Assembly (NCBI GenBank): GCA_002427845.1
Contig: DIYZ01000279.1
Coordinates: 1-62,234, forward strand
Length of the DNA: 62,234 nt
Reading direction: 5' to 3'
Origin: Chloracidobacterium sp. UBA6041
Lineage (GTDB): Bacteria; Acidobacteriota; Blastocatellia; Pyrinomonadales; Pyrinomonadaceae
Shown: positions 2,630 to 58,148 of the stretch, in pieces
Layout of the letters: each line of letters begins with the position of its first letter
Position numbering within the stretch: the first letter of the stretch is position 1
The notes under the pieces: model-generated
Database searches by the model: none
What the model was told of the DNA's origin: nothing
The model's input: only the letters and a program-made list of their open reading frames with translations
Translations under genes and position numbers: made by a program

Positions 2630-2648
2630 CAGTGGGCAGTGGGCAGTG
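2630..2648. repeat. heptamer array CAGTGGG x2.7
   Basis: cagtggg cagtggg cagtg read directly, in the spacer between the oxidoreductase stop and the VWFA start. Confidence 0.7.
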
Positions 2649-2686
2649 TAACAACCTGAATGGCGGCAATCACGATAGAAAGTAAA

Positions 2687-2699
2687 CAGCAATCAGCAA
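2687..2699. repeat. short CAGCAAT-family heptamer array
   Basis: cagcaatcagcaa. Same unit as the arrays at 4062-4089 and 13969-13996. Confidence 0.6.
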
Positions 2700-2713
2700 A
2701 GCACGCGGAAGAA

Positions 2714-2741
2714 CCCACCCGCTAACGCAGGTGGTACTGAC
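2714..2741. repeat. REP-like hairpin element, copy 1
   Basis: cccacccgctaacgcaggtggtactgac with stem ccacc/ggtgg and a 10-nt loop. The related copy at 62179-62207 has stem ccgcc/ggcgg. Confidence 0.55.
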
Positions 2742-2769
2742 AAGCGCCCTTGCTTACGACCGCCCCACA

Positions 2770-4035
2770 TTAATACACTTTTCGCTGTTGCACTTTTTCC
2801 TTAGTTGCCAGGGCAAACCTCGGTTCAACCTTAGCGTCGCCTGATATCAACGCCGCCACATGCTCGCCGACGGCTGGCCCGTGCTTGAATCCGTGGCCTG
2901 ACCCACCGCCTACCAGCCACACATTTTCGAACGCGGGATGCCGGTCGATCAAGAAGTCGCCATTCGAAGTGTTTTCATATTGACATACGCGTGTCTCAGT
3001 CACTACTGCCTTCGCCAACACCGGCATGCGCCGCGCTAGATAGGCGCGCACCGCAGCCAGACTATCAATAGATACAATCCTGTCGCCGGTGTCAGGATCA
3101 AACTGTGGTCCATGTGCATCGATCGCAATCTTGAAACCGCGGTTGTCGAGATTCGGAATACCATAGACGAGATCACTAAAGTCGATCCATGCCGGCATGC
3201 GCTCCGGCCCGAAGCGACTGTCACCTGAGGCATCTCCTGCGGGAACGCCGAAGAAAAAGACTTCCTGTCTGGTGGCGTGAATTAACTGCGCCAGCAACGC
3301 AGGGAAGATCTTTGGCAACCACGGTCCACATGCGAAAACGAATTCGTTGGCGAAGATTTCCCGGCCCGAGACCATATGAAGCGAATCGAGTCTGCTGCGA
3401 GAAGAGTCGGCATCAACATCGCTATCAAGTGGGAGGGTTGCTTCTTCCAGGTAAGTCACTCCGCGCGCCCGCGCTTGCGCGACGACAGCTTGCACTGCCT
3501 GACGCGCCATCAAGACGCCGCTATTCGGTTCGAGAATCCCCCACGTAATCGTCCCACCCCAGCCGGGCTGCCCTCCTCCACCCCAGCGGCGCTGCACCGT
3601 CGGGGACCCCGGAGAACCCAGTTCAAGCTGTGGATAACGCCGGAAAAGTTCAGCACGGTCGAGGCGTTCATACCCGACGTGGCATTGCTGAAGCGTTTCC
3701 AGCGTCGCCTCGCAGTAGGGGTCATTCTCCCGCGCCAGCCACAGGATTCCGGTGGGATGAAAGAGTCGGGGCGATATTCCAGTAGGGCCAATGTGATCGA
3801 AAAGTTCTTGCCAAAGCCCGAGCGAGCGCTGCGCCATCCGCGTGTAGATCTGATCCGGCCCATACCCCATCCGAATCATGCGCGACTCGCCGCCTGAACT
3901 TGCCCGACTATTTCCCGGTCCGTATGCGTCCACCAGGACTACTTCGGCGCGCGCGCGACTTAGTTGGTAGGCTGTCCACGCGCCAAAGACTCCTGCGCCG
4001 ACGACCGCGACATCGAAGGTCTTATTTGTGGTCAC
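2770..4035 (-). CDS. FAD-dependent oxidoreductase (DAO / sarcosine-oxidase-like family)
   Basis: 421-aa ORF with N-terminal dinucleotide fold FDVAVVGAGVFGAWTAYQL, LEPNSGVL and a C-terminal GGGSGHGFKHGP motif. Confidence 0.85.
   Translation of the reverse strand: MTTNKTFDVAVVGAGVFGAWTAYQLSRARAEVVLVDAYGPGNSRASSGGESRMIRMGYGPDQIYTRMAQRSLGLWQELFDHIGPTGISPRLFHPTGILWLARENDPYCEATLETLQQCHVGYERLDRAELFRRYPQLELGSPGSPTVQRRWGGGGQPGWGGTITWGILEPNSGVLMARQAVQAVVAQARARGVTYLEEATLPLDSDVDADSSRSRLDSLHMVSGREIFANEFVFACGPWLPKIFPALLAQLIHATRQEVFFFGVPAGDASGDSRFGPERMPAWIDFSDLVYGIPNLDNRGFKIAIDAHGPQFDPDTGDRIVSIDSLAAVRAYLARRMPVLAKAVVTETRVCQYENTSNGDFLIDRHPAFENVWLVGGGSGHGFKHGPAVGEHVAALISGDAKVEPRFALATKEKVQQRKVY
3544..3615 (-). 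repeat. GC-rich repeat carried in frame inside the oxidoreductase CDS
   Basis: Encodes SPGSPTVQRRWGGGGQPGWGGTIT just upstream of the conserved LEPNSG motif. 3554-3573 is identical to intergenic 401-420. Internally there is an imperfect tandem: ccaccccagccgggctgc / ccaccccagcggcgctgc. Confidence 0.6.
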
Positions 4036-4061
4036 GACGGTGATTGTATCGTGTATAGAAC

Positions 4062-4089
4062 CAGCAATCAGCAGTCAGCAATTAGCAAT
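4062..4089. repeat. heptamer array CAGCAAT CAGCAGT CAGCAAT TAGCAAT (x4)
   Basis: Read directly. On the minus strand it gives TAA, TGA, TGA spaced 7 nt apart, so all three frames are stopped. It supplies the last codons and the stop of the kinase fragment (..LLIADC*). Confidence 0.85.
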
Positions 4090-4388
4090 GACTCGCGCAG
4101 GGTCAGGCCATCAATGAACTCGGTAGCAATGAAGTAGGTGGAGTCTGCTTCTCCTACTTCATGGATAGTGATGATGTGCGGATGATTAAGTGCAGATGCT
4201 ACTTTCGCCTCTTGAAGAAAGCGGCGCACCCGCTGCTCGTTCGAGGCGACGTCAGCAGGAAGTATTTTCAGAGCAACTGTGCGGTCAAGCCGGGTATCAA
4301 CAGCCAGATATACTTCGCCCATGCCACCCGCACCAAGTTGCGAGCGGATCTCATAATGGGAAAGGCGTGTGCCTTTGGCGATGGACAT
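4068..4388 (-). pseudogene. Ser/Thr protein kinase N-lobe fragment (truncated)
   Basis: The 106-aa ORF has the Gly loop [13 protein letters not shown] lysine, alpha-C glutamate (FLQEAKV) and hinge ATEFIDG. It stops before any HRD catalytic loop or DFG motif. Confidence 0.7.
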
Positions 4389-4406
4389 GTGCGATTCCTC
4401 TGCATG

Positions 4407-10528: not shown

Positions 10529-11149
10529 ATGGATCCTGATCCAATGCAGTATGTGGAAGAGCAGGACGATCATGAGAAAAACAAAGAGGTGGCGGATGCT
10601 AAGAGCTCAAGGAAACTGAATACGCTCGTGGCGATTTCAGTTGCGCTCCTGGCCACCTTCATGGGCATCTGCAAGGTCAAAGACGACAACATCGTTCAGG
10701 CCATGCAGCAGGCCCAAGCCGATAAGATCGACAATTATTCATGGTTTCAGGCGCGCAACGTAAGGGAAGAGATTGCCAAAGCAACCATCGCGGAACTAAC
10801 CGCACAAGCGGCTTCGGCACCGCAGCAAGCACAAGCGGCGTATCAGGAACAGATCAAGGCATATCAGGCGATCGAGCAGGACCAGGCGGAGAAGAAGAAA
10901 ATTCAGCAAGCCGACGCCGAAAAGGCTGACAAGACGTACAACGAACTCAATTATCACGACGACCAGTTTGATCTGTCCGACGCCATGCTGGCCCTGGCTA
11001 TCTCGCTGTTAGCGCTGACCGCACTGACACAAAAGCGCTGGCTCTTCGTTCTCGCAATGGTCCCCACCTTCTTCGGCACACTTATGGGGTTGGCCGGGCT
11101 TTTTGGTTGGGCGATTCATCCGAACGCCCTCACAAGATTGTTGTCTTAG
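10529..11149 (+). CDS. DUF4337-like membrane protein
   Basis: 206-aa ORF with SD AAAAGGAGGG 7-8 nt upstream. It has an N-terminal TM (LNTLVAISVALLATFMGI), NYSWFQARNVRE, a coiled-coil Q/A-rich middle and C-terminal TMs. Confidence 0.7.
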   Translation: MDPDPMQYVEEQDDHEKNKEVADAKSSRKLNTLVAISVALLATFMGICKVKDDNIVQAMQQAQADKIDNYSWFQARNVREEIAKATIAELTAQAASAPQQAQAAYQEQIKAYQAIEQDQAEKKKIQQADAEKADKTYNELNYHDDQFDLSDAMLALAISLLALTALTQKRWLFVLAMVPTFFGTLMGLAGLFGWAIHPNALTRLLS

Positions 11150-11167
11150 TGTTTAGGAAAACGCCGC

Positions 11168-12731: not shown

Positions 12732-13048
12732 ACTAATCCCCTCCTTCAGCCTTACGATTGCCTCCTCCTGGAAACCACTTCGACAATCTGATTTCGCACT
12801 TTCTGCGGATTCATTTCTTGAAATATACCGTTTGCCAGTGTCTCTGGTGACAAGACTTGCATCTCCTCATAAGGCGTTGCGTACCCGCCGCCTTCCATCG
12901 TATCCGCCCGAATCCCAGACTGACTTCACAACCCTCACACCGAATCATCCATGAGCGCGATTCCGCCTCCATAGACGACGCTAGACTTTTCGGTAAAACC
13001 GAAACTACCTCTGCGCACGGTTCTGATACCGCATTCAGCCGCCGCAAC

Positions 13049-13083
13049 TTCATCATCCCGCATTCATCATTCATCCTTGACCC
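13049..13083. repeat. heptamer array TTCATCA-like (x5, degenerate)
   Basis: ttcatca tcccgca ttcatca ttcatcc ttgaccc. The minus strand reads ggatgaa tgatgaa tgcggga tgatgaa, directly 3' of the exonuclease stop. Confidence 0.65.
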
Positions 13084-13088
13084 GGTCG

Positions 13089-13955
13089 CTACCGCTCGCG
13101 ATTCTGTAGGTCCCGTACACGCGTCGCCAGGCGCGCATCACCAATTTTCCCTTCGACCTTCCCTTCGATCTTCTTTGCCACTGACGGAAATGACGCGGTC
13201 GCTCCGTTCCAGCGAAGTTGTTCGACATCGTCGAAGAGCGGCGCGTCGATTCGCAGCGTCGCGAGGTGCTTGAAGAGCAGCGCGCGTTCGAGATTATTCC
13301 GCTCGGGGTCATTCCTGAGAACATCGTCGGGAAACTGTTCGATGTGGCCGTAGCGGTTGATAAGTGTCGCGGCTGTTTTAGGCCCTAAACCCGGGATGCC
13401 AGGATACCCATCAGCGGCGTCACCCACGAGCGCGAGGTAGTCCGGGATGAACGTGGGCGCGACACCGAACTTCGCGCGAATGGCTTGCTCATCACGAATC
13501 TGACCGCTTCTCCGATCCACTTGAACTACGCGCTCTCCGACGACGCATTGCGCGAGATCCTTGTCCGGCGTCCAGATGCACACCTTCTGCACGCGCTCGT
13601 CCTGGGCCGCAATGTGTGCCGCGGACGCGAGCGCATCGTCAGCCTCGAACTCGATCATGGGCCACACGGCAACGGCCATCGCGGCGAGCGCCTCCTCGAG
13701 CGGGTGGAACTGCGCAAGCAGGGCCGGCTCGATGCCCGCGCCGGTTTTGTACTCCGGCCAAAGATCATTGCGGAACGACTCGATTACGTGATCAGTTGCG
13801 ACACCAATGTGCGTCGCCCCATCTTCGAGCATCTTCGCAACCGTATTAAGCACGCCGGCCACGGCGCCGAAAGGTGGATCGGTTTTCTTGAAACGCCGGA
13901 TGCCGTAGAAGTGACGAAAGAGTTCGTATGTGCCGTCAATGAGGTGAACGATCAT
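13089..13955 (-). CDS. 5'-3' exonuclease / flap endonuclease family protein
   Basis: MIVHLIDGTYELFRHFYG, FEADDALAS, H3TH motif GIPGLGPKTAATLINRYG. The ORF extends to 13982, but those extra codons lie in a heptamer array. Confidence 0.85.
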   Translation of the reverse strand: MIVHLIDGTYELFRHFYGIRRFKKTDPPFGAVAGVLNTVAKMLEDGATHIGVATDHVIESFRNDLWPEYKTGAGIEPALLAQFHPLEEALAAMAVAVWPMIEFEADDALASAAHIAAQDERVQKVCIWTPDKDLAQCVVGERVVQVDRRSGQIRDEQAIRAKFGVAPTFIPDYLALVGDAADGYPGIPGLGPKTAATLINRYGHIEQFPDDVLRNDPERNNLERALLFKHLATLRIDAPLFDDVEQLRWNGATASFPSVAKKIEGKVEGKIGDARLATRVRDLQNRER

Positions 13956-13968
13956 GCGCAGGGAGCGG

Positions 13969-13996
13969 TCAGCAGTCAGCAATCAGCAATCAGTGG
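13969..13996. repeat. heptamer array TCAGCAG TCAGCAA TCAGCAA TCAGTGG (x4)
   Basis: Read directly. The minus strand has four TGA spaced 7 nt apart, starting 1 nt after the VOC gene stop. Confidence 0.85.
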
Positions 13997-14384: not shown

Positions 14385-14408
14385 AGCGTTACCTCCCTGC
14401 CTTTATAG

Positions 14409-14445
14409 TAAATCGTGGATCGCAAATCGAGTAAATCGTAAATAG
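14409..14445. repeat. heptamer array TAAATCG-like (x5)
   Basis: taaatcg tggatcg caaatcg (ag) taaatcg taaatag. agtaaatcgtg also occurs at about 10119-10130. Confidence 0.65.
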
Positions 14446-15973: not shown

Positions 15974-15986
15974 CAAATTTCTTCCC

Positions 15987-16054
15987 AGTTCAGAGTACCA
16001 GCTTCAGCTTGATGAGTCTGAAAAACGGCAAACTAAAGTTTGAACTCTAAACTT
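15987..16054. repeat. 68-nt structured repeat element, copy A
   Basis: agttcagagtaccagcttcagcttg + 14-nt variable centre + cggcaaactaaagtttgaactctaaactt. It is collinear with copy B at 56739-56806, and the arms are partly self-complementary. Confidence 0.75.
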
Positions 16055-16086
16055 AAGAAGCGTCCGATCGCTGGAGGTTTTCGCGA

Positions 16087-17369: not shown

Positions 17370-18599
17370 ATGTCTCTGATGCAAACATTTTCACCCGCTG
17401 CGAGCACTGACGAGTTGATCGACTCTCCAAAGTTACAGAGCGTCTTTAGGCTTATCGATTCGCATTTGGGTGAGATTACGGAAGAGCAGATTCGAATTTG
17501 CTCGATTCCGGCACCACCGTTTGGAGAAAAGCAGCGCGCGGAATATCTCGGCAAGAGATTTAGCGAGGTTGGACTGCAATCCTGGCAACTCGATCAGGAA
17601 GGAAACTGTGTTGCGCTGCGACGGGGCAATTCGCCTGGGCCGCTTTTAGTTGTTAGCGCGCATCTGGATACAGTTTTTCCGCCCGAAACGGATCTTACTG
17701 TTCATCACGCGGGCAACAAACTTCTGGCGCCGGGTATCTCAGACGATTGCTGCGGCCTTGTTGGATTGCTGGCCATCGCTGAAGCTCTCGAGTCCTGCCG
17801 AATTGAAACCGAGGGTTCGCTTTTGTTTGTAGGAACGGTTGGTGAAGAAGGCGAGGGGAATCTTCGCGGAGTCAGATACTTACTAACCCGCGGTGAATGG
17901 GCCAACTGTGTTGACGCATTCTTGAGCTTTGACGGGCCGGGTATTGAACGAATCATAAATAGCGCTCTCGGTTCGCGCCGCTATCGTGTGCAACTGCGTG
18001 GAACCGGAGGACACTCGTGGGCTGACTTTGGCGTTGCTAACCCCGTTCATGCAGTGGCCCGCGCGGTCGCCAAACTTGCTTCGTACCCAGCACCACTGGA
18101 ACCGCGGACAACTTTTAACGTGGGCCGTATTGAAGGCGGCAGCAGCATTAACGCTATTCCACGTGACGCTACGGTGGATGTGGATCTTCGCTCCGCAAGC
18201 AGCGAAGAACTGCTCAAACTTGATGCCTTCTTTCGTCGCGCGATGCGGGAGGCAACCGAGGAGGAAAACGCCGGAGTACGCAACGGTGACCGCCCCTTGG
18301 AACTCAACGCTAGTTTGATTGGTGAACGTCCAAACGGTGAAACCCCTGCTAATTCGCCGCTGGTTAAGCTGGCGTGCGAAGCAACAGAAGCACTGGGCTC
18401 AAAGCCACGACTCGCTCAAGCGTCTACTGATTCGAACTTACCGATCTCTCTCGGCATTCCCGCAATTACCCTCGGCGCGGGAGGCACAGCAGGCAATTCA
18501 CATACTCTTGACGAGTGGTACGATCCACGCGGTCGTGAAGCCGGACTGAAGCGTGCCCTACTCGTCATCCTCGGAATAGTCGGGTTAAAAAACAGGTGA
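17370..18599 (+). CDS. M20/M25/M40 family metallopeptidase
   Basis: VVSAHLDTVF, VGEEGEGNLRG, GGHSW. The ORF is open from TTG 17298, which would overlap the leuA-like stop. ATG 17370 (MSLMQTF..) is preferred, but the start is uncertain. Confidence 0.75.
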   Translation: MSLMQTFSPAASTDELIDSPKLQSVFRLIDSHLGEITEEQIRICSIPAPPFGEKQRAEYLGKRFSEVGLQSWQLDQEGNCVALRRGNSPGPLLVVSAHLDTVFPPETDLTVHHAGNKLLAPGISDDCCGLVGLLAIAEALESCRIETEGSLLFVGTVGEEGEGNLRGVRYLLTRGEWANCVDAFLSFDGPGIERIINSALGSRRYRVQLRGTGGHSWADFGVANPVHAVARAVAKLASYPAPLEPRTTFNVGRIEGGSSINAIPRDATVDVDLRSASSEELLKLDAFFRRAMREATEEENAGVRNGDRPLELNASLIGERPNGETPANSPLVKLACEATEALGSKPRLAQASTDSNLPISLGIPAITLGAGGTAGNSHTLDEWYDPRGREAGLKRALLVILGIVGLKNR

Positions 18600-18601
18600 A
18601 C

Positions 18602-18669
18602 AGAAAGGGTAAGGGGTAAAGAGTAAGCGACCAGAATCTGGCTCTTACTCTTTACCCCCTACCCTTTCT
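18602..18669. repeat. inverted pair of GGGTAAG-type heptamer arrays forming a ~27-bp hairpin between convergent genes
   Basis: agaaagggtaaggggtaaagagtaagc / 12-nt loop / gctcttactctttaccccctaccctttct. Stop triplets are spaced 7 nt apart on both strands. This may be a bidirectional terminator, though T-runs are not adjacent. Confidence 0.8.
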
Positions 18670-18679
18670 ATGGTCCCTT

Positions 18680-19648
18680 TTAATTTATGGGAATCGTAAG
18701 CGTTGTGGAGCCGCCTTTCCCAGCCGGAAATCGCTTCTGACGTGCAATGCGCAGCGCGGTTGCGTCGGCGCCCGATGCCTGCGTAACGCGGCCCGATTCG
18801 TCATAAGTGACTGTTACCGCAACCTTCTTGGGTCCCGGCTTTGCTGATTCAGCCACACCGTTTGCCGGTGCCGGCGCAGGTGATTTTGTTCCAGGCTGAG
18901 TTAGCGCAGCCGCTTTCTCTTCTCGAGCCTTGGCTTTTTCTTTGTCGTGCTGTCGTTTCGCAGCAAGCGCCGCCTCCGAGTTGTGATCGCTCAAGGCTGA
19001 ATTTTCCGAAGGCTGTGCCACTTCGTTCTGCGGAGCCTCAGCTACAGTTGGTTCGGTACTCGTCGATTCAATCCTCGCCGGCTGACTAACAACTGCGCTT
19101 GCCTTCGCGCGACCGTACCAACCCGCAGGGACACCGATCGCTGCAACGCTGGCAATCACTGCCACGACGACGGCTCCCGCAATTATTAATCTTCGCTTCG
19201 CCATTGATTCAGAATTAATAAAGGAAAGGAAAGCCGGCACGCGCAGCTTCTCGATGTCGGTAAACGAATCCGCAGGCGAACCTGCTTCGGGCGCACTACT
19301 TTCATTCGGGTAGTTTGGCGGAAACGCGGATGGCGGGACAACCCCTTCATCGAGCCGGCGCAAGCCTTCTAATACTACCTGCGTCCAGGGTTGATTGATT
19401 GTGCGCTCGACGGATTCTGTAGAAGCGCCAAACTCAAACTTCGCGTTCGGAAGCGTAAGCGCATAGTAGACAGCGTCAATCCCCCGCAGCACGCCAATAC
19501 GGGCGTCAACTACCGAGCCGGTTTGCAGATAAAAGTAGCCATGCCCCTCGGGGTAAAGCACTTTTAGCTGTCCGGTCTTGCGTTGGTTGCAGAAGAACTC
19601 AATCAGTTCGGATAGCGAAAGGTCGCTCAGATGTCCGGTTAGTCCCAT
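18680..19648 (-). CDS. DUF4388 (PATAN-like) domain protein with TM segment
   Basis: LTGHLSDLSLSELIEFFCNQRKTGQLKV..GYFYLQTGSVVDA, TM RRLIIAGAVVVAVIASVAAIGV, SD AGGAG. Confidence 0.75.
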   Translation of the reverse strand: MGLTGHLSDLSLSELIEFFCNQRKTGQLKVLYPEGHGYFYLQTGSVVDARIGVLRGIDAVYYALTLPNAKFEFGASTESVERTINQPWTQVVLEGLRRLDEGVVPPSAFPPNYPNESSAPEAGSPADSFTDIEKLRVPAFLSFINSESMAKRRLIIAGAVVVAVIASVAAIGVPAGWYGRAKASAVVSQPARIESTSTEPTVAEAPQNEVAQPSENSALSDHNSEAALAAKRQHDKEKAKAREEKAAALTQPGTKSPAPAPANGVAESAKPGPKKVAVTVTYDESGRVTQASGADATALRIARQKRFPAGKGGSTTLTIPIN

Positions 19649-37605: not shown

Positions 37606-37655
37606 GTGGTAAGGATTTTTCGATTACGGTTTGGTGAAACTAAATTGCTGCCTCT

Positions 37656-37690
37656 GAATCGCAATTCGCAACTCCGAAATTTCAAACTAA
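37656..37690. repeat. degenerate 7-nt-periodic array abutting the cdaA start
   Basis: gaatcgc aattcgc aactccg aaatttc aaactaa cag ATG. Confidence 0.45.
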
Positions 37691-37693
37691 CAG

Positions 37694-38567: not shown

Positions 38568-38618
38568 CGATCTGAAATCTGAAGTCTGAGGTTTGAGATC
38601 TGGATCTGAAATCTAAAG
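38568..38618. repeat. heptamer array NATCTGA x7 filling the cdaA-cdaR spacer
   Basis: cgatctg aaatctg aagtctg aggtttg agatctg gatctg aaatcta aag ATG. TGA/TAA at 38573, 38580, 38587, 38594, 38607 and 38614 cover all three frames. Confidence 0.85.
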
Positions 38619-42924: not shown

Positions 42925-44658
42925 CTATCGCTGTGTATTGTCCAGAAATGCTTTGAGCTTGCGCGAGCGAGAAGGGTGACGTAATTTGCGCAGCGCTTTT
43001 GCCTCGATTTGACGGATACGCTCGCGAGTGACTGCGAAGTGCTGGCCAACTTCCTCCAGCGTGTGCTCTGACCCGGTGTTCCCGAGACCAAAGCGCATCT
43101 TGATGACTTTCTCTTCACGCGGCGTTAGCGTGGCCAAAACCTCGTCGGTGATTTCGCGCAGATTAGAAGCAACCACCGCGTCCGCCGGGTTTAGTATAGA
43201 CTTGTCTTCGATAAAGTCGCCAAGATGCGAATCTTCTTCTTCACCAATCGGCGTCTCCAGCGAGATGGGTTCCTGCGCGATCTTCAGAACCTTGCGAACT
43301 TTCGACACAGGAATGTCCATTTTCCTGGCAATCTCTTCGCTCGTCGGTTCCCGGCCCAGCTCCTGCACGAGCGCACGCGACGTGCGAATTAGCTTGTTGA
43401 TGGTTTCAATCATGTGCACGGGAATGCGAATAGTGCGAGCTTGATCGGCAATCGCCCGCGTAATTGCCTGCCGAATCCACCAGGTGGCGTAGGTGGAAAA
43501 CTTGTAACCGCGCCGCCATTCAAACTTGTCGACCGCTTTCATCAAACCAATGTTGCCTTCCTGAATCAGATCCAGAAACTGAAGACCTCGATTTGTGTAC
43601 TTCTTGGCGATCGATACCACCAGGCGCAAATTTGCTTCGACAAGTTCACGCTTCGCCTGCCCCGTCTGTTGTTCACCTATGACAATTGCCTGCAGCGCGC
43701 GCTTGATTTCAACAGGACTAATATTGTGGTCAACGTCAACCTGCTGTAGCCGTTTACGGGCAGCCGAAACCCGCCGCTTATATTCCTTTTGATCGTCGAC
43801 TTTGATCCGTTTCCGGTTGAGCTTTTCAGTAAAACTGTCTATCTCGCGCTCAGCCTCGCGCACTTCTTTTTGCACGGACCGTATTGAGTTGATCAAACGT
43901 TGGCGTGCGCGCTCGGTAACGTTTAGCCGGCCAATCTCCTGGGCAATCTCCAGCCGCAGCCGCGCAACTTTCCGGCGCAGCCGCGTGAGCTTTTTGCTCT
44001 TTTTGCCGCGCGTCGCTTTCTGCTCGTCCCGAAGTTTCTCCCATTCTTTCAGTGCTTGCTTGAAAACCTTGCGAATGTTTTGAATTCCTTCGACGGTCCA
44101 GGCACGATACTCCTCAGCCTTGTCTTTATCTTCATCGCCGGTTAGTTCAGCCTGTTCGGCAAAGATAACGATCTCGCGAATGTTCGCAGTGCCCGCCTCA
44201 AGCTCATCGCCAATTCTTATGAGTTCCTTGACTGCAATTGGTGATCGGGCAATTGCCTTTTGAGTTTTGAGTTGTCCACGTTCGATTCGCTTTGCAATAG
44301 CCACTTCGCCTTCGCGCGTTAGCAAGGGAACGACTCCCATCTCGCGCAGATAAAGCCGAACCGGATCGTTGGTTTTCTCGAGGGCGCCGGCAGAGAGGTC
44401 GAGTTCCACCTCCTCCTCGCTGCCTTCCTCGTCATCAACCACAACCACGGCCGCCTGTTCCAGCAATCTTTCGTCCGAGTCAGCAACGGGGATGTTTGAA
44501 CCTTCGAGTTTTTGCAGGACGTCTTCAATGTCGTCAGGAGAAACGACATTGTCAGGTAGCTCGCGATTCAAATCGTCGAACGTGAGATATTTCTTGTCGC
44601 CACCCAACTCCAGCAGGCGCTCCATTACATCGTCACGATCTTTGTCCTCAATAGTCAC
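42925..44658 (-). CDS. rpoD: RNA polymerase sigma factor RpoD
   Basis: Regions 1.1 to 4 are present: acidic N-terminus, [61 protein letters not shown]. Confidence 0.95.
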
Positions 44659-44782: not shown

Positions 44783-46609
44783 CTATGAAGGTCCGGTTTG
44801 CATTGCTTCCGCTTTTGGCAACAAAGCGCTTCTAAGCCTTGCAAGCTCAAGGTGCTCAGTGGAGAGTTGATCGCGACGCTCCACTTCGCCATTTCGCTCT
44901 GCGGCGGCGATTTCCGAGGTTAAGTCGCTGATGAGGCGATCGACTTTCATCAATCGTAACGCGTCGAGGCACCGTTCGGCAGCTAACTGCCGCGCGCTGA
45001 ATTGCCCTTCTTCGCTTTCATCAAACTCGATCATTAGCAGACTGGGCAAAAGATCAGAAACTGGGTTCCCTTCCGTTCTCTGGCTCAGGAAGTCGAAGTT
45101 AATCGTGGCGCCTTCACGCTCACCATCGATCAAAGCGCGGAAAATAGGCGCGGTTGCCAGGTCGTCGTAATCGCCGGGTTCTAGTTTTGGCAAAACACCG
45201 TGGCGTAACTCGGCATCGGCCAGCAACAACTCCAGCAGACGCTGTTCCGCTACTGTCGGCTTAACCATCCGCATACTGACAGGTTGCGCGACGCGCGAGC
45301 CATCAGCGGCACCCACTCTAATTGATTGCCATAATTCTCGCCGTAACGTCGCGTCGCCTATTCGCAGAGAGTCCATCGCAATATCGAAATACTCGCGCTT
45401 CTGAATGCGACTGCGGACCGCGCGAATGTACGGCAGCACCTCATCAATCGCTGCCTCTTTATCGGCCGGATTGCTGAGCTTGCGATTCCGCACAGCCTGA
45501 TCGATCACAAATTGTATGTGGGGTTGTGCCTCGCCACGTTGCCGTCCGTATTCACTAGCGCCGGACTTCCTGATGAACTCATCCGGATCAGAGTTATCCG
45601 GCAGCACCAGGATTTTAACTTCGATATCTTCCGCGAGAAGTATTTCAATCGCCTTTTTTGCTGCCTGCACACCCGCGTTATCGCCATCATAATTGACCAC
45701 GACTTTGCGGGCAAATCGCCCTAATAATCCGGCCTGTTCAGGCGTCAGGGCGGTTCCTAAACTCGCCACGACGTTCCGAATTCCGAATTGATACGGCACT
45801 ATAAGATCCAGAAAACCCTCTACCAGAATGGCGAACCCGTCGCGTCGAATTTCATCACGGGTCAGATGAAGACCAAACAGATTTCGCCCCTTAACATAAG
45901 CTGCTGTTTCCGGCGAGTTAATATATTTGGCGTCTTCATTCCGCAGCGTGCGCCCGCCAAAGGCGATCGGCTTTCGCTGAATATCTAACACCGGAAAAAT
46001 TAGCCGGCCGCGGAAACGATCGTAAGAACCGCCTTCTTCTTTTTTGACGACGAGCCCACTCCGTTCAATTTGTTCCTGACTCGCGCCCTTCTGTCTGAGA
46101 TGGATAGAAAGCGCGTCCCAACTATCAGGCGCGTAGCCGAGTCGAAAGGTCTTGCGTGTTTCTTCTGTAATCTCGCGTTGAAGCAAATAATCACGAGCGA
46201 CGCGAGCTTCCCCGCTCGACTCGAGCTGCTGCTCCCACCATTCCAGCGCCCACTTGTTAAGCTCAATAACTTCGTCAGCTTCATGACGTTTCGCTTCGAA
46301 GCGACTGTCGTCGATCAACTTCGGTAAAGGCACGCCCGACTTTTCCGCCACCAGCTTGATGGCTTCAGGAAAAGATACGCGCTCCATCTCCATTACAAAG
46401 TTGAAGACCGATCCGCCCTTGTGGCAACCAAAGCAGTAGAAGATCTCCTTTGCCGGACTGACGGAAAACGACGGCGTCTTCTCCTTGTGAAAGGGACAGC
46501 ACGCCATCCAATTCGCGCCCTTCTTTTTTAGCTGGACGTAGTCCTGTACGACGCGCACGATGTCAGCCTGGCGCTTGAGGTCGTCGATGAATGTTTGTGG
46601 ATAGCGCAT
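44783..46609 (-). CDS. dnaG: DNA primase
   Basis: Zinc ribbon CPFHKEKTPSFSVS..YCFGCHKGG and Toprim LVEGFLDLI..NYDGDNAG. Confidence 0.95.
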   Translation of the reverse strand: MRYPQTFIDDLKRQADIVRVVQDYVQLKKKGANWMACCPFHKEKTPSFSVSPAKEIFYCFGCHKGGSVFNFVMEMERVSFPEAIKLVAEKSGVPLPKLIDDSRFEAKRHEADEVIELNKWALEWWEQQLESSGEARVARDYLLQREITEETRKTFRLGYAPDSWDALSIHLRQKGASQEQIERSGLVVKKEEGGSYDRFRGRLIFPVLDIQRKPIAFGGRTLRNEDAKYINSPETAAYVKGRNLFGLHLTRDEIRRDGFAILVEGFLDLIVPYQFGIRNVVASLGTALTPEQAGLLGRFARKVVVNYDGDNAGVQAAKKAIEILLAEDIEVKILVLPDNSDPDEFIRKSGASEYGRQRGEAQPHIQFVIDQAVRNRKLSNPADKEAAIDEVLPYIRAVRSRIQKREYFDIAMDSLRIGDATLRRELWQSIRVGAADGSRVAQPVSMRMVKPTVAEQRLLELLLADAELRHGVLPKLEPGDYDDLATAPIFRALIDGEREGATINFDFLSQRTEGNPVSDLLPSLLMIEFDESEEGQFSARQLAAERCLDALRLMKVDRLISDLTSEIAAAERNGEVERRDQLSTEHLELARLRSALLPKAEAMQTGPS

Positions 46610-50432: not shown

Positions 50433-50511
50433 AACTGGCGACCGTCGCCTGGGAAACCGGACACAAAAAATGTGACGACCGAAACACAACTATCTTCGTA
50501 TACCCACTGTC

Positions 50512-52578: not shown

Positions 52579-52581
52579 AAA

Positions 52582-52737
52582 GCGGCTTTGCCGCCTTCCG
52601 TGCGGAAAGGCTAAGCCTTTCCGGTAAGCGCCTAAATTTTATAATGAGGCTGCGCCTCCAGAGCTGAGGCGTAGCCTCGAGAAATTAAGAGCGGACGGAA
52701 AGCCGTAGGCTTTCCGCACGGAGAGCGGCCAAGCCGC
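52582..52737. repeat. dyad-symmetric cluster of six tri-loop mini-hairpins
   Basis: H1 gcggc-ttt-gccgc 52582-52594. H2 cggaaaggc-taa-gcctttccg 52603-52623. H3 gaggc-tgc-gcctc 52646-52658. H4 gaggc-gta-gcctc 52666-52678. H5 cggaaagcc-gta-ggctttccg 52696-52716. H6 gcggc-caa-gccgc 52725-52737. Confidence 0.8.
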
Positions 52738-52861
52738 AAAATCTGTCGCGAGGACAAGCGAAGACGAACGGGCATGACTTTAAGTCACGGGTTGACTTGC
52801 TCCCCATGCACGAGGCGAGTAACATCAAGCTTCCCCTAATTTAATCACCAGGAGTAAAGCC

Positions 52862-53428: not shown

Positions 53429-53514
53429 ACGATATTCGTGGAACGGATTACTTCGTTCGGAAACTTCAGCTTAAAATCCTTTTGCATTAACATTTCATTT
53501 TTCCAAACTCTGGG

Positions 53515-53544
53515 GCGTGATGCTTTCGATCCGAAGCATCACGC
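53515..53544. other. 11-bp stem hairpin gcgtgatgctt-tcgatccg-aagcatcacgc
   Basis: Perfect inverted repeat 19 nt upstream of the rhomboid ORF start. Confidence 0.5.
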
Positions 53545-53562
53545 TTGTTAGCGTAAAGACAC

Positions 53563-54930
53563 TTGCGTAATAACCCGCCAAACGAAGCCGGCAAAAATTC
53601 CAATGCCGGCCGCCCTTCGATGTGTCGCAGTTGCGGCGCGATCATCGGCGGGGGGCAACCGCAATGCGCCGTTTGCGGCGCGTCGGTTACCGGTCCCGCT
53701 ACGGACCCGGGTCAACCTCGCGTGGCTGCCGACGGCGAGACGATGCGATTTGCGCGGGCGGTCTTAAGCCGGCCTTATAAATTCACGATCATTCTGCTGA
53801 TGGCGAACTTTTTTGTCTTCCTGTTGATGTGGGAGGCGAGCGGAACAACTGGCGGGTCGCTATGGGGGTTTCCCGAACCTGTGCTGGTGGCCTTTGGCGC
53901 GAAAGTGAACTTCCTAATCAATCAACAGCATCAGTGGTGGCGATTTGTCACGCCGATGTTTGTGCACGTGAATCTGCTGCACGTGCTCGTTAACATGTAC
54001 AGTTTGTGGATTGTTGGTCCATATGTTGAAAAGCTTTACGGCTCGGCAAAATTCATTGTCTTCTGGGTGCTGACCGGCGTGGCCGGCGTCCTTGCCAGTT
54101 ATCTGACTGTCAGGCCCGGGCTCTCTGTCGGTTCAATGGGACGTTTCCTCTTTAAGACTGCTGACGTGCCGTCCGCGGGGGCATCGGGTGCGCTCTTCGG
54201 GCTGGTTGGAGTGCTGTTTGTCTTCGGCATTAAGTTTCGCCACGAGCTACCCGAAGGCTTCAAACGCGCGTTTGGCACGGGCTTGTTACCGATGATAATG
54301 CTCAATCTATTCATCGGATACGTGGGCCGCGGCTTTATCGATAACGCAGCACACCTCGGGGGTATGATCTCGGGTGGAATTCTGGCCGTCGCCGTTGGCT
54401 ATCAGAGACCAGGTGAAAAATCAGGTATCACGACGCTGTGGCAGGTACTGCAAATTGCCGCAATCGCTCTCGTCGCTATCAGTTTCATAAAGACCGGGCA
54501 GCATTACGGAGATCCTTTGCCGCCACCATTGGTGGCCGTGCAGCCGGTTCAATCTGTAAACCCAAAAAACGACAAGTTTGTTTCCTACGCGAAAGCAATG
54601 AATGATGCTCAGGAAGCGTTTTACCTGGTCGTGAATGATGGCGATGTAGCCAGCGCAGAGCGTGCTGTTAAAGATCTCCAGGCAGCGCCGCAACTCGATG
54701 CAACGGCCGACGAGCTGAAAAACAGGTTGCAGGCACTGCTGATCAAGGCCAGGGAAATGAAAGCTGCACAGAATTCCGGCACGCCTGACATAAAAAATCC
54801 GCAACCGGGACGCGATCTAACAACCAGTTTCGTTGCCTGGAGCAGGGACTATAATGCCTGGCTGAAAACCAGCGGTAGAAAATATAGCAGTCTAACCAAA
54901 CTGGCCGGGTCAGAATCGCCGCCAAAGTAA
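53563..54930 (+). CDS. rhomboid family intramembrane serine protease with N-terminal zinc ribbon
   Basis: CRSCGAIIGGGQPQCAVCG, catalytic GASGALFGL and HLGGMISG. The C-terminal region is soluble. Start is TTG 53563 or ATG 53620. Confidence 0.85.
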   Translation: MRNNPPNEAGKNSNAGRPSMCRSCGAIIGGGQPQCAVCGASVTGPATDPGQPRVAADGETMRFARAVLSRPYKFTIILLMANFFVFLLMWEASGTTGGSLWGFPEPVLVAFGAKVNFLINQQHQWWRFVTPMFVHVNLLHVLVNMYSLWIVGPYVEKLYGSAKFIVFWVLTGVAGVLASYLTVRPGLSVGSMGRFLFKTADVPSAGASGALFGLVGVLFVFGIKFRHELPEGFKRAFGTGLLPMIMLNLFIGYVGRGFIDNAAHLGGMISGGILAVAVGYQRPGEKSGITTLWQVLQIAAIALVAISFIKTGQHYGDPLPPPLVAVQPVQSVNPKNDKFVSYAKAMNDAQEAFYLVVNDGDVASAERAVKDLQAAPQLDATADELKNRLQALLIKAREMKAAQNSGTPDIKNPQPGRDLTTSFVAWSRDYNAWLKTSGRKYSSLTKLAGSESPPK

Positions 54931-54960
54931 TCTGAGTCTGAGAACTAAGAGGAGAAAGAG

Positions 54961-55854
54961 ATGGAAATTAAGAGAGTGGGTGTATTGGGCTGCGGACTGA
55001 TGGGTTCGGGTATAGCTCAAACTGCGGCGAGCGCGGGATTTGAAACTATCGTGCGAGAAGTTTCCGATGAGTTGCTGCAAAAAGGATTTGCGGGAATTGA
55101 AAAGTCGCTTTCCAGGTTTGCCGAGAAGGGCACCATCACTGCGGAGCAACAGAAGGCCATTCGCGATCGCTTGTCCGGCACCACATCTTTTGCAGACCTT
55201 GCCGATTGCGACATCGTGATCGAAGCGATTATTGAGAACATTGAAGAGAAAAGAAAGACGTATGCAGAGCTTGACCGCATATGTAAGCCGGAAACGATCT
55301 TCGCGTCTAATACTTCGTCGATCTCGATTACGGAGATGATGACGGCAACATCACCCAGCCGACAACAGCGCTTCATTGGTCTGCACTTTTTCAATCCCGT
55401 ACCGATCATGAAGCTGGTCGAAGTTGTGAAAACGATATTGACCGACGACGCCATCTACGAACGGGCAATTGAGTTTGGCAAGCAACTGGGGAAGGTGCCG
55501 GTGCGGGCCGGCGACAAGACCGGGTTCATCGTCAATCGCCTGCTCGTGCCTTATATGCTCGATGCCATTCGAGCGCTGGAAGAAGGTGTCGGTTCGATTG
55601 TGGATATAGATACGTCGATGAAGCTCGGTCTGGGTTATCCGATGGGTCCGTTTACCTTAGGCGACTTCGTTGGCCTGGACACGACCTACTACATTGCCGA
55701 AATCATGTTCAACGAGTTTCGCGAGAAGCGATTTGCGCCCCCGCCATTATTGAAGCGTATGGTATTAGCAGGTTTGTATGGACGGAAATCCGGCCGCGGG
55801 TTTTACGACTACACGAAAGATCCAAAAAATCCGACGCCGATGAAGTTGGTATAG
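54961..55854 (+). CDS. hbd: 3-hydroxybutyryl-CoA / 3-hydroxyacyl-CoA dehydrogenase
   Basis: VGVLGCGLMGSGIAQ, FFNPVPIMKLVEV, GFIVNRLL. Confidence 0.9.
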   Translation: MEIKRVGVLGCGLMGSGIAQTAASAGFETIVREVSDELLQKGFAGIEKSLSRFAEKGTITAEQQKAIRDRLSGTTSFADLADCDIVIEAIIENIEEKRKTYAELDRICKPETIFASNTSSISITEMMTATSPSRQQRFIGLHFFNPVPIMKLVEVVKTILTDDAIYERAIEFGKQLGKVPVRAGDKTGFIVNRLLVPYMLDAIRALEEGVGSIVDIDTSMKLGLGYPMGPFTLGDFVGLDTTYYIAEIMFNEFREKRFAPPPLLKRMVLAGLYGRKSGRGFYDYTKDPKNPTPMKLV

Positions 55855-55856
55855 CA

Positions 55857-55955
55857 GTTTCGAGTTTCGGGTTTCGAGTTTCGAGTTGCCTCCCAGGGGA
55901 TCGACGCACGACCACATTCAACCCGGAACTCGGAAACTCGGAACTCGAAACTAGT
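55857..55955. repeat. inverted pair of heptamer arrays (GTTTCGA x4-5 / AACTCGG x5) forming an imperfect long hairpin
   Basis: gtttcga gtttcgg gtttcga gtttcga gttgcct ... aacccgg aactcgg aaactcgg aactcga aactagt. It fills the hbd-crotonase spacer. Confidence 0.85.
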
Positions 55956-55960
55956 AACGC

Positions 55961-56734
55961 ATGTCTTCCATCCTTTTCGAGCGACACCAGCAAGTCGCGA
56001 TCATTCGCCTCAACCGGCCGGAAAAGTTCAATGCGCTTTCGCGTGAGATGATTCTGGCGTTGACCGATCTGTTTAAAGGCTTCGAGCGCCAGTCGGAGTT
56101 GCGCGCCGTGATCCTGACAGGCGCCGGCGAAAAGGCCTTCTGTGCCGGCACGGACATCACCGAACTGACCGGGCTTGATAAAGCTGGCGCGCGCGAGGTG
56201 GCTGAACGCGGCCAGACACTTTGCAATGAAATCGAAAATTGCGGTGTACCGGTGATCGCGGCGATCAATGGAATCGCGGCGGGTGGCGGCTGCGAACTGG
56301 CGCTTGCCTGCCATATTCGAATCGCGGCGCCAAACGCCTCATTCAGTTTGCCTGAAACAAAGCTCGGAATTATTCCGGGTTACGGCGGCACGCAGCGGCT
56401 GGCTCGCGAGATCGGCGAGGGACGAGCACTCGAGATGATGCTCACAGCAAGAAGCGTTAACGCTGAAGAAGCTTTGCGAGTGGGCTTGATCAATCGCATC
56501 ACTTCCCGCGATGTGTTAGCGGAAGCAGAAGCGTTGGCAAAAGAAATTGCGAGTCTCGCCCCTCTGGCCCTTCGCGCTTGCCTCGAGGCAGTAACGCGAG
56601 GTTTAGCGTTACCCATCGCAGAAGGGCTTGCTTTGGAAACAAAACTTTTCGCTAGTCTGTTTGCCACTGGCGATGTGAAAGAAGGCACGCGCGCGTTTCT
56701 GGAAAAACGCCCACCTGTTTTCAAAGGAATTTAG
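55961..56734 (+). CDS. enoyl-CoA hydratase (crotonase family)
   Basis: IIRLNRPEKFNAL, GAGEKAFCAGTDI, AAINGIAAGGGCELALACHIRIA. Confidence 0.9.
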   Translation: MSSILFERHQQVAIIRLNRPEKFNALSREMILALTDLFKGFERQSELRAVILTGAGEKAFCAGTDITELTGLDKAGAREVAERGQTLCNEIENCGVPVIAAINGIAAGGGCELALACHIRIAAPNASFSLPETKLGIIPGYGGTQRLAREIGEGRALEMMLTARSVNAEEALRVGLINRITSRDVLAEAEALAKEIASLAPLALRACLEAVTRGLALPIAEGLALETKLFASLFATGDVKEGTRAFLEKRPPVFKGI

Positions 56735-56738
56735 AACA

Positions 56739-56806
56739 AGTTTAGAGTACAAGCTTTAGCTTGCGTCTTTCGCCGAGCGGCAACCTAAAGGTTGAACTCT
56801 GAACTT
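56739..56806. repeat. 68-nt structured repeat element, copy B
   Basis: agtttagagtacaagctttagcttg + 14-nt variable centre + cggcaacctaaaggttgaactctgaactt. Segment lengths are the same as copy A (25+14+29). Confidence 0.75.
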
Positions 56807-56820
56807 CAATAAACCCCAAC

Positions 56821-56849
56821 TTGCTGCCCTCAAAGGCATCACCTATACT
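56821..56849 (+). promoter_or_regulatory. candidate promoter TTGCTG-N17-TATACT for ribH-nusB
   Basis: ttgctg at 56821-56826 and tatact at 56844-56849. Confidence 0.4.
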
Positions 56850-56892
56850 GCGAAATGCCTTCTAAAGGGCGGGAAACGGAGCCACTTAGTTC

Positions 56893-57372
56893 TTGCAGCC
56901 TGCAATTCACGAAGGACATCTCAACGCTCAGGGATTTCGTTTTGCGATTGTCGCCAGTCGCTGGAACGACTTCATTAGCGCTCGACTGGTTGAGGGTGCG
57001 CTCGATGCGCTTGAACGTTTAGGAGCCGAAGAGAAAGAAGTTGCGGTCTACAAAGTTCCCGGCGCTTTCGAGATTCCGCTGTTGGCGCTGAAGCTGGCCG
57101 GCTCCGGTAACTTTGACGCAGTCATCTGCGTCGGTACAATTATTCGCGGCCAAACTCCACACTTCGAGTACATTGCAAATGAAGTTGCCGGCGGCATCGC
57201 GCGGGCGGGTTTGCAAACCGGGATACCGGTAGTTTTCGGAGTCATTACCGCAGACAATTTTGACCAGGCAATCGAACGCGCGGGGGTCAAGTTGGGAAAC
57301 AAGGGTTTTGAGGCCGCTACGACGGCGGTTGAGTTAGTAAATCTTTACAAGGAAGCTTTTGGAGAACGGTGA
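56893..57372 (+). CDS. ribH: 6,7-dimethyl-8-ribityllumazine synthase
   Basis: [30 protein letters not shown] start. Confidence 0.93.
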
Positions 57373-57434
57373 ACGATGAACGCGGAACGATGAACAGAAA
57401 GCTTTCTTCATCGTTCATAGTTCATAGTTCATCC
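57370..57434. repeat. inverted pair of heptamer arrays (TGAACGA x4 / TTCATAG x4) forming a hairpin in the ribH-nusB spacer
   Basis: tgaacga tgaacgc ggaacga tgaacag aaagctttc ttcatcg ttcatag ttcatag ttcatcc. The first TGA is the ribH stop codon. Confidence 0.85.
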
Positions 57435-57444
57435 TTGAAGCATT

Positions 57445-57951
57445 ATGGGTTCGCGACGTAAGGCGCGCGAGTGCGCCTTGCAAATGCTCTTTGCGGCTGA
57501 TGTTGCCGACACTGTCCCCGCTGAGGTCCTGAATACCTACTGGGCAGAGCTTGGCGACTCCGACACGGAGGAAGCGGCGCGTGAATTCGCGACGCGCCTC
57601 GCGGCGGGAACGCTTGCGCACCTGGAGGCCCTCGACGAGCGCATACGTTCGCGCGCGGAACACTGGCGCATTCCCCGTATGGCGATCGTCGATCGAAACA
57701 TTCTCCGGCTGGCAGTTTACGAATTCCTCTACGAACCCACTCCTCGCACTGTCGCCATCAACGAAGCCCTCGAGATCGCCCGGCGCTTTTCGACGTACGA
57801 AGCAACGCAGTTTATTAACGGTATTCTCGACGCGATAAAACGCGACCTCGACGAAGAGCAGCCACAGGAACACATGGACTCCCAGGAGCTTGAAGCGGAG
57901 TCTGAATCCGAGCAACCTCCGGACGACGAACAGTCAGCATCCTCTGCCTAG
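57445..57951 (+). CDS. nusB: transcription antitermination factor NusB
   Basis: RRKARECALQMLF, VDRNILRLAVYE, INEALEIARRF. There is an acidic C-terminal tail. Confidence 0.9.
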   Translation: MGSRRKARECALQMLFAADVADTVPAEVLNTYWAELGDSDTEEAAREFATRLAAGTLAHLEALDERIRSRAEHWRIPRMAIVDRNILRLAVYEFLYEPTPRTVAINEALEIARRFSTYEATQFINGILDAIKRDLDEEQPQEHMDSQELEAESESEQPPDDEQSASSA

Positions 57952-58099
57952 CGGTCGCGTCACTGGAAGTTTAAAGTCCCTGTCATTAGCACCTGCCTTG
58001 AGCCAGATGAGAGAGTATCTATGGCAACCTCCGAAACTGTTTAAACGGTTGCCTGCCCCAAGAATAAAGTCCAGTCTGAAATTAAAACTGGCAACTAAT

Positions 58100-58148
58100 C
58101 TTTATTCTTTCTTATTCACTATTCACCATTTACCATTTACTATTCTTT
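58100..58148. repeat. heptamer array ATTYACY-like x7 abutting the cheA start
   Basis: ctttatt ctttctt attcact attcacc atttacc atttact attcttt c GTG. Confidence 0.8.

Follow-up and report, generated by a model that had tools for sequence, protein, structure and literature searches.

Intergenic spacers in a 62,234-nt stretch of DNA from Chloracidobacterium sp. UBA6041 (contig DIYZ01000279.1; the whole stretch is hereafter called the window) are built from tandem heptanucleotide arrays at about a dozen loci. These period-7 arrays are real, non-coding and spread family-wide. We consider it fairly probable that they are simple sequence repeats (SSRs) resembling the short tandemly repeated repetitive sequences (STRRs) of cyanobacteria, remodelled in place by slippage and existing in two forms: hairpins made of an array and its inverted copy, which would be kept by selection, and unstructured solo arrays, which would act as spacers. 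The genome, that of a soil acidobacterium, is known here from 62 kb. Its gene content had been judged acidobacterial from the sequence alone, and the closest genomes bear this out, being metagenome-assembled genomes (MAGs) labelled Pyrinomonadaceae, Blastocatellia or Acidobacteriota. The proteins flanking the arrays are ordinary housekeeping ones (the cdaA-cdaR-glmM operon, ribH-nusB, cheA, 5'-3' exonuclease, thymidine kinase, rpoD, dnaG, mutS2). A look-up of the exact thymidine kinase protein returned no record. The arrays are the same in 10–20 independent assemblies (ENA, JGI, NCBI, Logan) and are therefore not an assembly artefact.

Period-7 arrays in the window and its relatives

Tandem repeats were called with Tandem Repeats Finder (TRF) and with a custom lag-match detector that treats all periods equally; null expectations were taken from dinucleotide shuffles of the window and, separately, from each of its 38 spacers shuffled alone (200 shuffles). 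Over the whole window the detector finds 10 period-7 arrays against 0.32 in the shuffles, and 0–2 arrays at the other periods from 4 to 15. The comparison with shuffled intergenic controls, a check set beforehand, gives 8 period-7 arrays observed against 0.12 expected; none of the 200 shuffles reaches 8, and the other periods yield 0–1 arrays, period 7 alone being over-represented. Autocorrelation of the intergenic DNA peaks at lags 7 (0.281) and 14 (0.283) over a background of ~0.25, and coding DNA shows the lag-3 series only. The period-7 calls of TRF begin at positions 2630, 4062, 13049, 13969, 14408, 38570, 55856, 55920, 57364, 57407 and 58113. A sequence-only reading of this DNA had described spacers made of tandem heptamers at about a dozen places; the sequences read as it claimed, and both TRF and the shuffle tests agree. 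The array loci number 11–12 per 62 kb, all in spacers (percentages are those given by TRF):

2630–2648, minus strand: solo array CAGTGGG (sense CCCACTG), 2.7 copies, in the spacer of the DAO gene (2770–4035, minus) and the von Willebrand factor A-domain (VWA) gene (956–2560, minus); 100%
2687–2699, minus strand: weak CAGCAAT array, 1.9 copies, sharing its unit family with 4062 and 13969; read from the sequence, under the TRF threshold
4062–4089, minus strand: solo array, sense ATTGCTR/ACTGCTG, 4.0 copies, 26 nt upstream of the DAO start codon; 85%
13049–13083, minus strand: degenerate solo array, sense GATGAAT/GCGGGAT, beginning 12 nt past the exonuclease stop; TRF 13049–13075, 3.9 copies, 70%
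13969–13996, minus strand: solo array, sense TTGCTGA, 3.6 copies, filling the 40-nt glyoxalase-to-exonuclease spacer; TRF 13969–13993, 94%
14409–14445, minus strand: degenerate solo array, sense CGATTTA, 5 copies, in the thymidine kinase-to-glyoxalase spacer; TRF 14408–14443, 4.9 copies, 67% with indels
18602–18669, no strand assigned: hairpin between convergent genes, its arms made of degenerate GTAARNN heptamers; read from the sequence and by folding
37656–37690, plus strand: AAATCGC-type direct repeats, 2–3 conserved copies, within a conserved cdaA promoter/leader block; not called by TRF
38568–38618, plus strand: solo array ATCTGAA, 6.6 copies, filling the cdaA-cdaR spacer of the cdaA-cdaR-glmM operon; TRF 38570–38614, 79%
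55856–55955, plus strand: hairpin with 5' arm GTTTCGA, 4.6 copies, and the complement as 3' arm, from 3-hydroxyacyl-CoA dehydrogenase to enoyl-CoA hydratase (ECH); TRF 55856–55887 and 55920–55952, 4.6 copies each
57364–57434, plus strand: hairpin with 5' arm TGAACGA and 3' arm TCGTTCA/TAGTTCA, between ribH and nusB; TRF 57364–57395 and 57407–57432
58100–58148, plus strand: solo array ATTYACY, 4.7 clear units (7 if degenerate ones are counted), with 4 nt between its end and the GTG start of cheA; TRF 58113–58145, 84%

The arrays in the window are short (3–7 units; up to ~14 in relatives), and those at 18602, 37656, 13049 and 14409 are degenerate, with ~60–70% unit identity, 18602 being missed by TRF like 37656. 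At least nine unrelated unit families occur within the 62 kb of this one genome; the units are diverse, ~48% GC, and most lack G-quadruplex (G4) potential. It had been stated that no array lies inside an intact coding sequence, which is correct for arrays of at least three units and not for two perfect 2.3-copy repeats, TTTTGAG in rpoD (44258–44273) and TTCCGAA in dnaG (45774–45789), a number slightly above the ~0.2 expected by chance.

Relatives were represented by 165 non-redundant loci (~1.97 Mb, ~16% of it non-coding) retrieved around three window genes, and several of the counts that follow are inflated by orthologous loci. Arrays of at least three copies number 68 intergenic and 13 in crude open reading frames (ORFs) at period 7, 18 and 3 at period 8, and 24 and 7 at period 9. 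Period 7 is thus the commonest intergenic array class, with at least one such array at 48 of the 165 loci, and its recurrence across the family shows that the phenomenon is not a single recent duplication. Array density depends on gene context: per kb of spacer, co-directional gene pairs have 0.62 arrays, convergent pairs 0.44 and divergent pairs 0.14, and the fractions of spacers with an array are 7.2%, 7.0% and 2.6%, respectively. Divergent spacers are 3–4 times poorer in arrays; spacers that hold promoters only are avoided, as with repetitive extragenic palindrome (REP)-type elements.

A census of units gives 47 types among 78 arrays. Relative to shuffles within units, several k-mers are over-represented among the types: AATC/GATT (9 against 2.9 expected), CTGA (9 against 3.7) and CCAA (9 against 1.7), and TGA/TCA is the most enriched trinucleotide (19 of 47 types; null mean 11.6). 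Single-linkage clustering of the units produced a 32-member cluster; with ~22 links expected at random, we dropped it as an artefact of chaining.

Hairpins built from inverted array pairs

At three window loci two arrays in inverted orientation fold together. The region 55850–55960 has a folding free energy (dG) of −49.4 kcal/mol (z −6.4) and 57360–57445 one of −31.4 kcal/mol (z −4.5); 18595–18680 reaches −49.9 on the plus strand (z −8) and −55.3 kcal/mol on the minus strand (z −10). The units of the three hairpins are mutually unrelated and share no REP-type consensus. The two operon-internal hairpins (55856 and 57364) reach from the upstream stop codon to 12–14 nt before the next ATG; between ribH and nusB the 5' arm starts at the ribH stop codon and the 3' arm ends 12 nt before the nusB ATG. 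At the position of the 55856 hairpin, relatives carry other hairpins that are not built from arrays.

The ribH-nusB hairpin was compared at genus level, in five species whose NusB proteins are 85–91% identical, and it keeps its position in all five. Its unit is TGAACGA in three of them, TGAAGGA in one and ACTTGTN in one, the opposite arm being altered to match each. Of the aligned cells 88% pair, and both sides have changed in 13 of the 25 pairs, a level of compensation that none of 500 shuffles reaches and that slid controls approach with two pairs at most; one unit position changes from C-G to G-C to U-A, and does so throughout the units of both arms. Orthologous glyoxalase-exonuclease spacers likewise form hairpins from differing, mutually complementary units, the partner arm, where present, being complementary. 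In these alignments, paired arrays hold their complementarity through unit turnover, formally so at ribH-nusB and less formally at glyoxalase-exonuclease. Such persistence between species points to selection on pairing or to a templating mechanism.

The 18602 hairpin lies between convergent genes and is bracketed by an A-tract (18587–18592) and a T-tract (18677–18687), for which reason it is probably a bidirectional terminator; the tracts stand 8–9 nt off the main stem, and a simple terminator scan misses the hairpin. In the ~2 Mb of window and relatives there are ~38 array hairpins. Their 5' arm has more G than C in 28 of 35, a property independent of the strand that is read, because a palindrome reads alike on both strands. 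One candidate idea is that a G-rich 5' arm might avoid exposing a C-rich Rho-binding stretch.

In the mechanism that we propose, an array and its inverted copy would yield a 25–35-bp hairpin that either begins at the stop codon of the preceding gene and stops ~12 nt short of the following start codon, or sits between convergent genes; it would be retained by selection for pairing. By analogy with REP elements we infer that such hairpins would act at the RNA level, with any effect on expression arising there. On the mRNA they could serve as a barrier or protection at the 3' end or as a processing site; between convergent gene ends they would act as terminators; and within operons they may couple the translation of two neighbouring genes, by occluding the downstream start until the ribosome that terminates on the first gene relieves the block.

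Several palindromes of other construction were seen as well. A REP-like family of dispersed hairpins (AGTTYAGAGTACMAGCTTYAGCTTG ... CTAAAGKTTGAACTCTRAACTT), not built from heptamers, has copies at 15986–16062 and 56737–56812 and at 10560–10640 of L102, one of the relatives' loci (L numbers), with a mean column identity of 77% over the three. Other REP-like palindrome pieces, CAGTACCACCTGCGTTAGCGGGTGGGTTCTTCCG and GGTCGCTACCGCT, lie at ~2700–2740 and 13084–13100 and resemble long hairpins that L103 and L104 have in their spacers. A nested palindrome of ~160 nt, at 52579–52745, lies downstream of the AhpC/NHL gene, and its spacer (−127 kcal/mol, −0.45 per nt) is the most structured long spacer of the window.

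Solo arrays and the turnover of units

The solo arrays (2630, 4062, 13049, 13969, 14409, 38568 and 58100) fold no better than shuffled sequence (z −1.6 to +1.1). The spacer of the 2630 array (z +1.1), that of the 13969 array (z +0.3) and the 14409 array (z +1.1) are unstructured, the 38568 array has weak structure (z −1.6) and the 58100 array essentially none (dG −1.2). Four solo arrays end 4–26 nt ahead of a start codon. The 14409 array lies upstream of a GGGAGG Shine-Dalgarno (SD) sequence, and it has ATTTAC units and a ATTTACTAT end in common with the cheA leader array. The arrays before cdaR and cheA end 4 nt before starts that lack an SD sequence, as do the starts of nusB and ECH, which follow hairpin 3' arms, and of the exonuclease gene. 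Of the genes checked, the four that come after an array or a hairpin arm are all without an SD sequence, against 9 of 21 others; since 13 of the 25 genes lack one anyway, its absence after arrays is uninformative and at best weak evidence. Solo arrays might nonetheless be unstructured filler or leader from a stop codon to an SD-less start, in which case the number of units would set the spacing of the genes.

Arrays change by whole units. Among strains more than 99.9% identical, BLAST gives two indels over up to 20 kb, one being the loss of a single 7-nt GTTTCGA unit from the 5' arm at 55856, found in two of ten strains (L084 and L086). Between species, unit number differs at the same spacer, and in four of five species the cheA leader array, ATT(T/C)AC(C/T/G), is kept while the remaining spacer is unalignable. 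In one strain only, L084, the nusB-cheA spacer (about window position 58060) also has a 35-nt insertion, CGCTAAATGATCACCTGGCTGAAGCCGGTGCTAAT, which contains a small internal hairpin and is unrelated to the heptamer array.

Followed in ~60 relatives, the cdaA-cdaR spacer can be as short as 8 nt or exceed 100 nt; relatives without arrays have one of 8–14 nt. Units of ATCTGAA or ATTTGAG fill it in the clade closest to the window, where they start at, and repeat, the conserved terminal ATC TGA of cdaA; other clades have different units, which likewise start at the stop codon. This comparison indicates that the array arose locally from the terminal heptamer of the gene. The orthologous glyoxalase-exonuclease spacer in nine relatives runs from 29 nt without an array to 277 nt of arrays and hairpins, with units TTGCTGA/CTGCTGA, CTTCTGA or TTGGACA.

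The sequence-only reading had each unit of several arrays carry a stop triplet on the strand of the upstream gene, with stops in all three frames. This is so for 4062, 13969 and 38568; as a general rule it is only a tendency. Among 35 solo arrays between co-directional genes, all-frame stops occur in 12 on the sense strand and in 6 on the antisense strand, which is not significant, and conserved arrays at 58113, 55856, 2630 and 14409 have no sense-strand stop. Solo arrays of CTGA type are sense-biased 15:3, many of them being orthologues of two spacers, and those of ATTYAC type are also biased in orientation. Much of the stop content is explained by the unit being a copy of the stop-codon heptamer (ATCTGA of cdaA; the ribH TGA in the first unit), and the stop triplets of solo arrays would mostly be inherited from such a seeding heptamer.

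Some arrays at different loci are paralogous blocks, a feature that, like the compensatory evolution of the conserved hairpins, escaped the sequence-only reading. Positions 4063–4089 and 13964–13990 are 89% identical, with unit variants in the same order, and 13048–13080 and 57406–57438 are 76% identical with identical termini; the 13049 array matches the 3' arm of the ribH-nusB hairpin on the plus strand, so that in its sense orientation it resembles a 5' arm. The order of unit variants common to different loci suggests that blocks are also copied or converted between loci. In the proposed mechanism, then, replication slippage in 7-nt steps would create and remodel arrays in place and some blocks would be copied from one locus to another; arrays would survive in non-coding DNA only, because a 7-nt period breaks reading frames, and transcribed spacers would be preferred.

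In some other Pyrinomonadaceae lineages arrays and hairpins have a period of 8 (CGCAAAGA/TCTTTGCG; L012, L040, L041, L053, L057, L062 and L066) or of 9–10 (CACAGATTA, CACGGATNN; L029, L033, L048, L049, L058, L062, L065 and L079), many of them in spacers that hold heptamers in the window genome. Arrays of TAGGACCTA occur in L159–L169.

The 37656 repeats are atypical: unlike the fast-evolving arrays, they are conserved in ~45 relatives (CdaA identity 76–94%). The block in which they lie, 37620–37693 upstream of cdaA (TTTCGATTACGGTTTGGTGAAACTAAATTGC...GAATCGCAAATCGCAAATCC.GGATTTCAAA), is kept nearly base for base in ~45 relatives and has no Rfam match. It looks like a promoter and 5' leader, and is possibly a regulatory element of the c-di-AMP synthase operon.

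Within the minus-strand ORF 4068–4388 (106 aa), the only match is to a protein kinase N-lobe (profile positions 1–87 of 263). Because it ends within the 4062–4089 array, we take it for the remnant of a truncated gene; a test for a deletion scar found no syntenic locus, and no full-length copy, among the retrieved relatives. Gene callers may lengthen or shorten ORFs at heptamer arrays. The VWA gene contains, at 2174–2342, four copies of a 42-nt repeat (14 aa) with ~80% identity.

Competing explanations and known heptamer repeats

A number of observations weigh against slippage combined with selection for pairing. Slippage alone explains neither the unit-variant order shared between loci, nor the recurrence of a limited set of unit motifs, nor the G-rich 5' arm of the hairpins; and periods of 8–10 at the same spacers in relatives argue against a universal 7-nt polymerase footprint. 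No T-run is present at the operon-internal hairpins (55857 and 57370), and promoter and terminator consensus scans of the window give counts equal to shuffles and leave the array hairpins uncalled. In 26 hairpins the sense strand folds better in 16 and the antisense strand in 9 of the 25 that differ, which is not significant; with the sense strand not clearly better folded, there is room for a DNA-level cruciform or for hairpin-templated repair without selection. The covariation comes from five sequences only, and the gene maps of the relatives are crude longest-ORF approximations. A scan of the whole window against Rfam returned no family at the gathering score.

A neutral origin, which we regard as rather unlikely, would make the arrays debris of slippage-prone replication or repair that is tolerated outside genes, with complementarity produced by quasi-palindrome (hairpin-templated) correction. 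It agrees with the variation of spacer length and array presence among close relatives, some of which have no array at the cdaA-cdaR and glyoxalase-exonuclease positions, with the many unit types, and with the lack of a clear folding advantage of the sense strand. It fits poorly with the ribH-nusB hairpin, whose position is kept in five species with compensatory change, and with the cheA leader array, conserved where its flanking spacer is not; nor does it account for the scarcity of arrays in divergent spacers, the orientation bias of the CTGA- and ATTYAC-type solo arrays or the consistently G-rich 5' arm.

One could go beyond slippage and selection in the other direction, and suppose that the short-period arrays of Pyrinomonadaceae (7 nt here, 8–10 nt in sister lineages) are self-renewing, actively propagated material for intergenic RNA hairpins and leaders. 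Blocks would then be copied with the G-rich arm first, the arms would be homogenised together, and unit number would tune the coupling or stoichiometry of operons. We think this unlikely; if true, the arrays would be minimal, convertible regulatory repeats of a novel kind, copied or templated by a mechanism dedicated to them, and not slippage debris.

For the TAACTGA repeats of Beggiatoaceae and for Nostoc heptamers it has been proposed that they are multivalent sites to which a protein binds sequence-specifically, on DNA or RNA, giving something like a regulon. The over-represented motifs AATC/GATT, CTGA and CCAA, the recurrence of unit families at unrelated loci and in different genomes, and the conserved AAATCGC repeats of the cdaA leader would suit such sites, as would solo arrays adjoining SD-less start codons, a setting also described in PMC4679880. 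The idea nevertheless seems improbable here: at least nine unrelated unit families share 62 kb, orthologous spacers swap the unit and even the period (7, 8, 9, 10), which is hard to square with one binder, and there is no candidate protein.

Tiny mobile or copy-pasted elements (like miniature inverted-repeat transposable elements (MITEs), REPs or SDRs) that insert into spacers are a highly doubtful source, even though the two pairs of paralogous blocks share unit-variant order or termini, one hairpin family stands at several spacers of a single relative genome (L064, L050) and true REP-like dispersed hairpins co-occur in the window. The strain polymorphism is a unit indel and not the presence or absence of an element, the cdaA array grows from the gene's own terminal sequence, and ectopic gene conversion could yield the paralogous blocks. 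A MITE reading was rejected, as loci of the same family have no shared flanks, terminal inverted repeats or target-site duplications. That the arrays are pads of stop codons in all three frames, selected to end read-through or frameshifted translation between genes, is most improbable: the three-frame sense stops at 4062, 13969 and 38568, the 15:3 sense bias of CTGA units and the enrichment of TGA/TCA speak for it, but the overall sense excess is not significant and the bias is inflated by orthologous loci, four well-conserved arrays do without a sense stop, and a unit copied from a stop-codon heptamer would bring stops with it in any case.

Slippage in place, with hairpins selected for pairing and solo arrays as spacers, thus remains the explanation that we prefer. 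In the papers cited here, the function and origin of bacterial heptamer repeats have been unsettled since their first description in 1990. Hundreds of MAGs with syntenic spacers are available for this acidobacterial family, and in them the birth of an array from a terminal heptamer, changes of unit number in near-identical strains and paired unit turnover are all visible, and the question of STRR function becomes specific and testable.

The STRRs of cyanobacteria go back to Mazel et al. (1990), as cited in PMC4692102. The likeness proposed by the sequence-only reading is one of form: there as here, heptamers are arranged head to tail, in several families per genome, at many dispersed non-coding loci and in adjacent mosaics of units. 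The arrays described here differ in belonging to Acidobacteriota, in being short and in containing no classic STRR unit; no tandem dimer of CCCCAGT, TTGGTCA or CAACAGT (STRR1–3) was found in the window or in 164 related loci, and dimers of TAACTGA or of the Nostoc units were absent from the same set save for one GGGAATC dimer in a single relative. REP and BIME (bacterial interspersed mosaic element) palindromes, which occupy intergenic DNA of Proteobacteria, have one consensus per genome and are linked to RAYT transposases. They resemble the array hairpins in being stable, in lying in operon spacers and at convergent gene ends and in being rare in divergent promoter regions; unlike theirs, the stems here are made of variable tandem heptamers.

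Three tandem heptanucleotides were described in Calothrix, as cited in PMC4692102. Heptamer repeats had been put forward as a classic feature of heterocystous cyanobacteria, but they are not confined to that group: heptamers are the commonest class of long SSR in many bacteria (Mrazek 2007, through PMC4679880 and PMC4692102), and in the summary of that survey given by PMC4679880 they are the most abundant such class in most bacterial genomes, with polymerase slippage as the proposed cause. Heptamer arrays are no cyanobacterial marker. The arrays share with the 5–11-nt long SSRs of Mrazek, Guo & Shah (2007), as summarised there, the dominance of heptamers, the exclusion from genes of periods that are not multiples of 3 and length change of slippage type; they too are longer than chance (8 against 0.12) and polymorphic in whole units (at 55856 and between species). 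They differ in that, according to the summaries in PMC4679880 and PMC4692102, Acidobacteriota are absent from the most repeat-rich genomes of the survey, and in having periods of 8–10 at the same spacers.

Related species of Xanthomonas carry GGGAATC repeats in the same gene gaps, though not with a constant length or sequence, and some of the repeats are inverted pairs (Rehm et al. 2015, PMC4692102). The GGGAATC/GGGGAYT repeats of Xanthomonas and Nostoc are G-rich and quadruplex-forming (PMC4692102), whereas the units here are diverse; the role of the Nostoc heptamers is still speculative in the literature. The TAACTGA repeats of Beggiatoaceae stand directly upstream of SD-less start codons (MacGregor 2015, PMC4679880), and the present arrays are like them in lying a few nt upstream of SD-less starts, in having stop triplets in the unit and in occurring in essential operons. 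Those repeats, known from marine Beggiatoaceae, cyanobacteria and Bacteroidetes, have one dominant unit throughout a genome and almost never form inverted pairs (PMC4679880); the present arrays use many units, ~40% of the arrays occur in pairs and TAACTGA is absent. A literature search for heptamer repeats in Acidobacteria or Pyrinomonadaceae returned no relevant report. The arrays are a known kind of repeat, found in cyanobacteria, Xanthomonas, Beggiatoaceae and Bacteroidetes and here in an acidobacterium; what is new beyond the cited papers is the comparative evidence for compensatory upkeep of hairpins, for the seeding of arrays from stop codons and for the paralogy of blocks.

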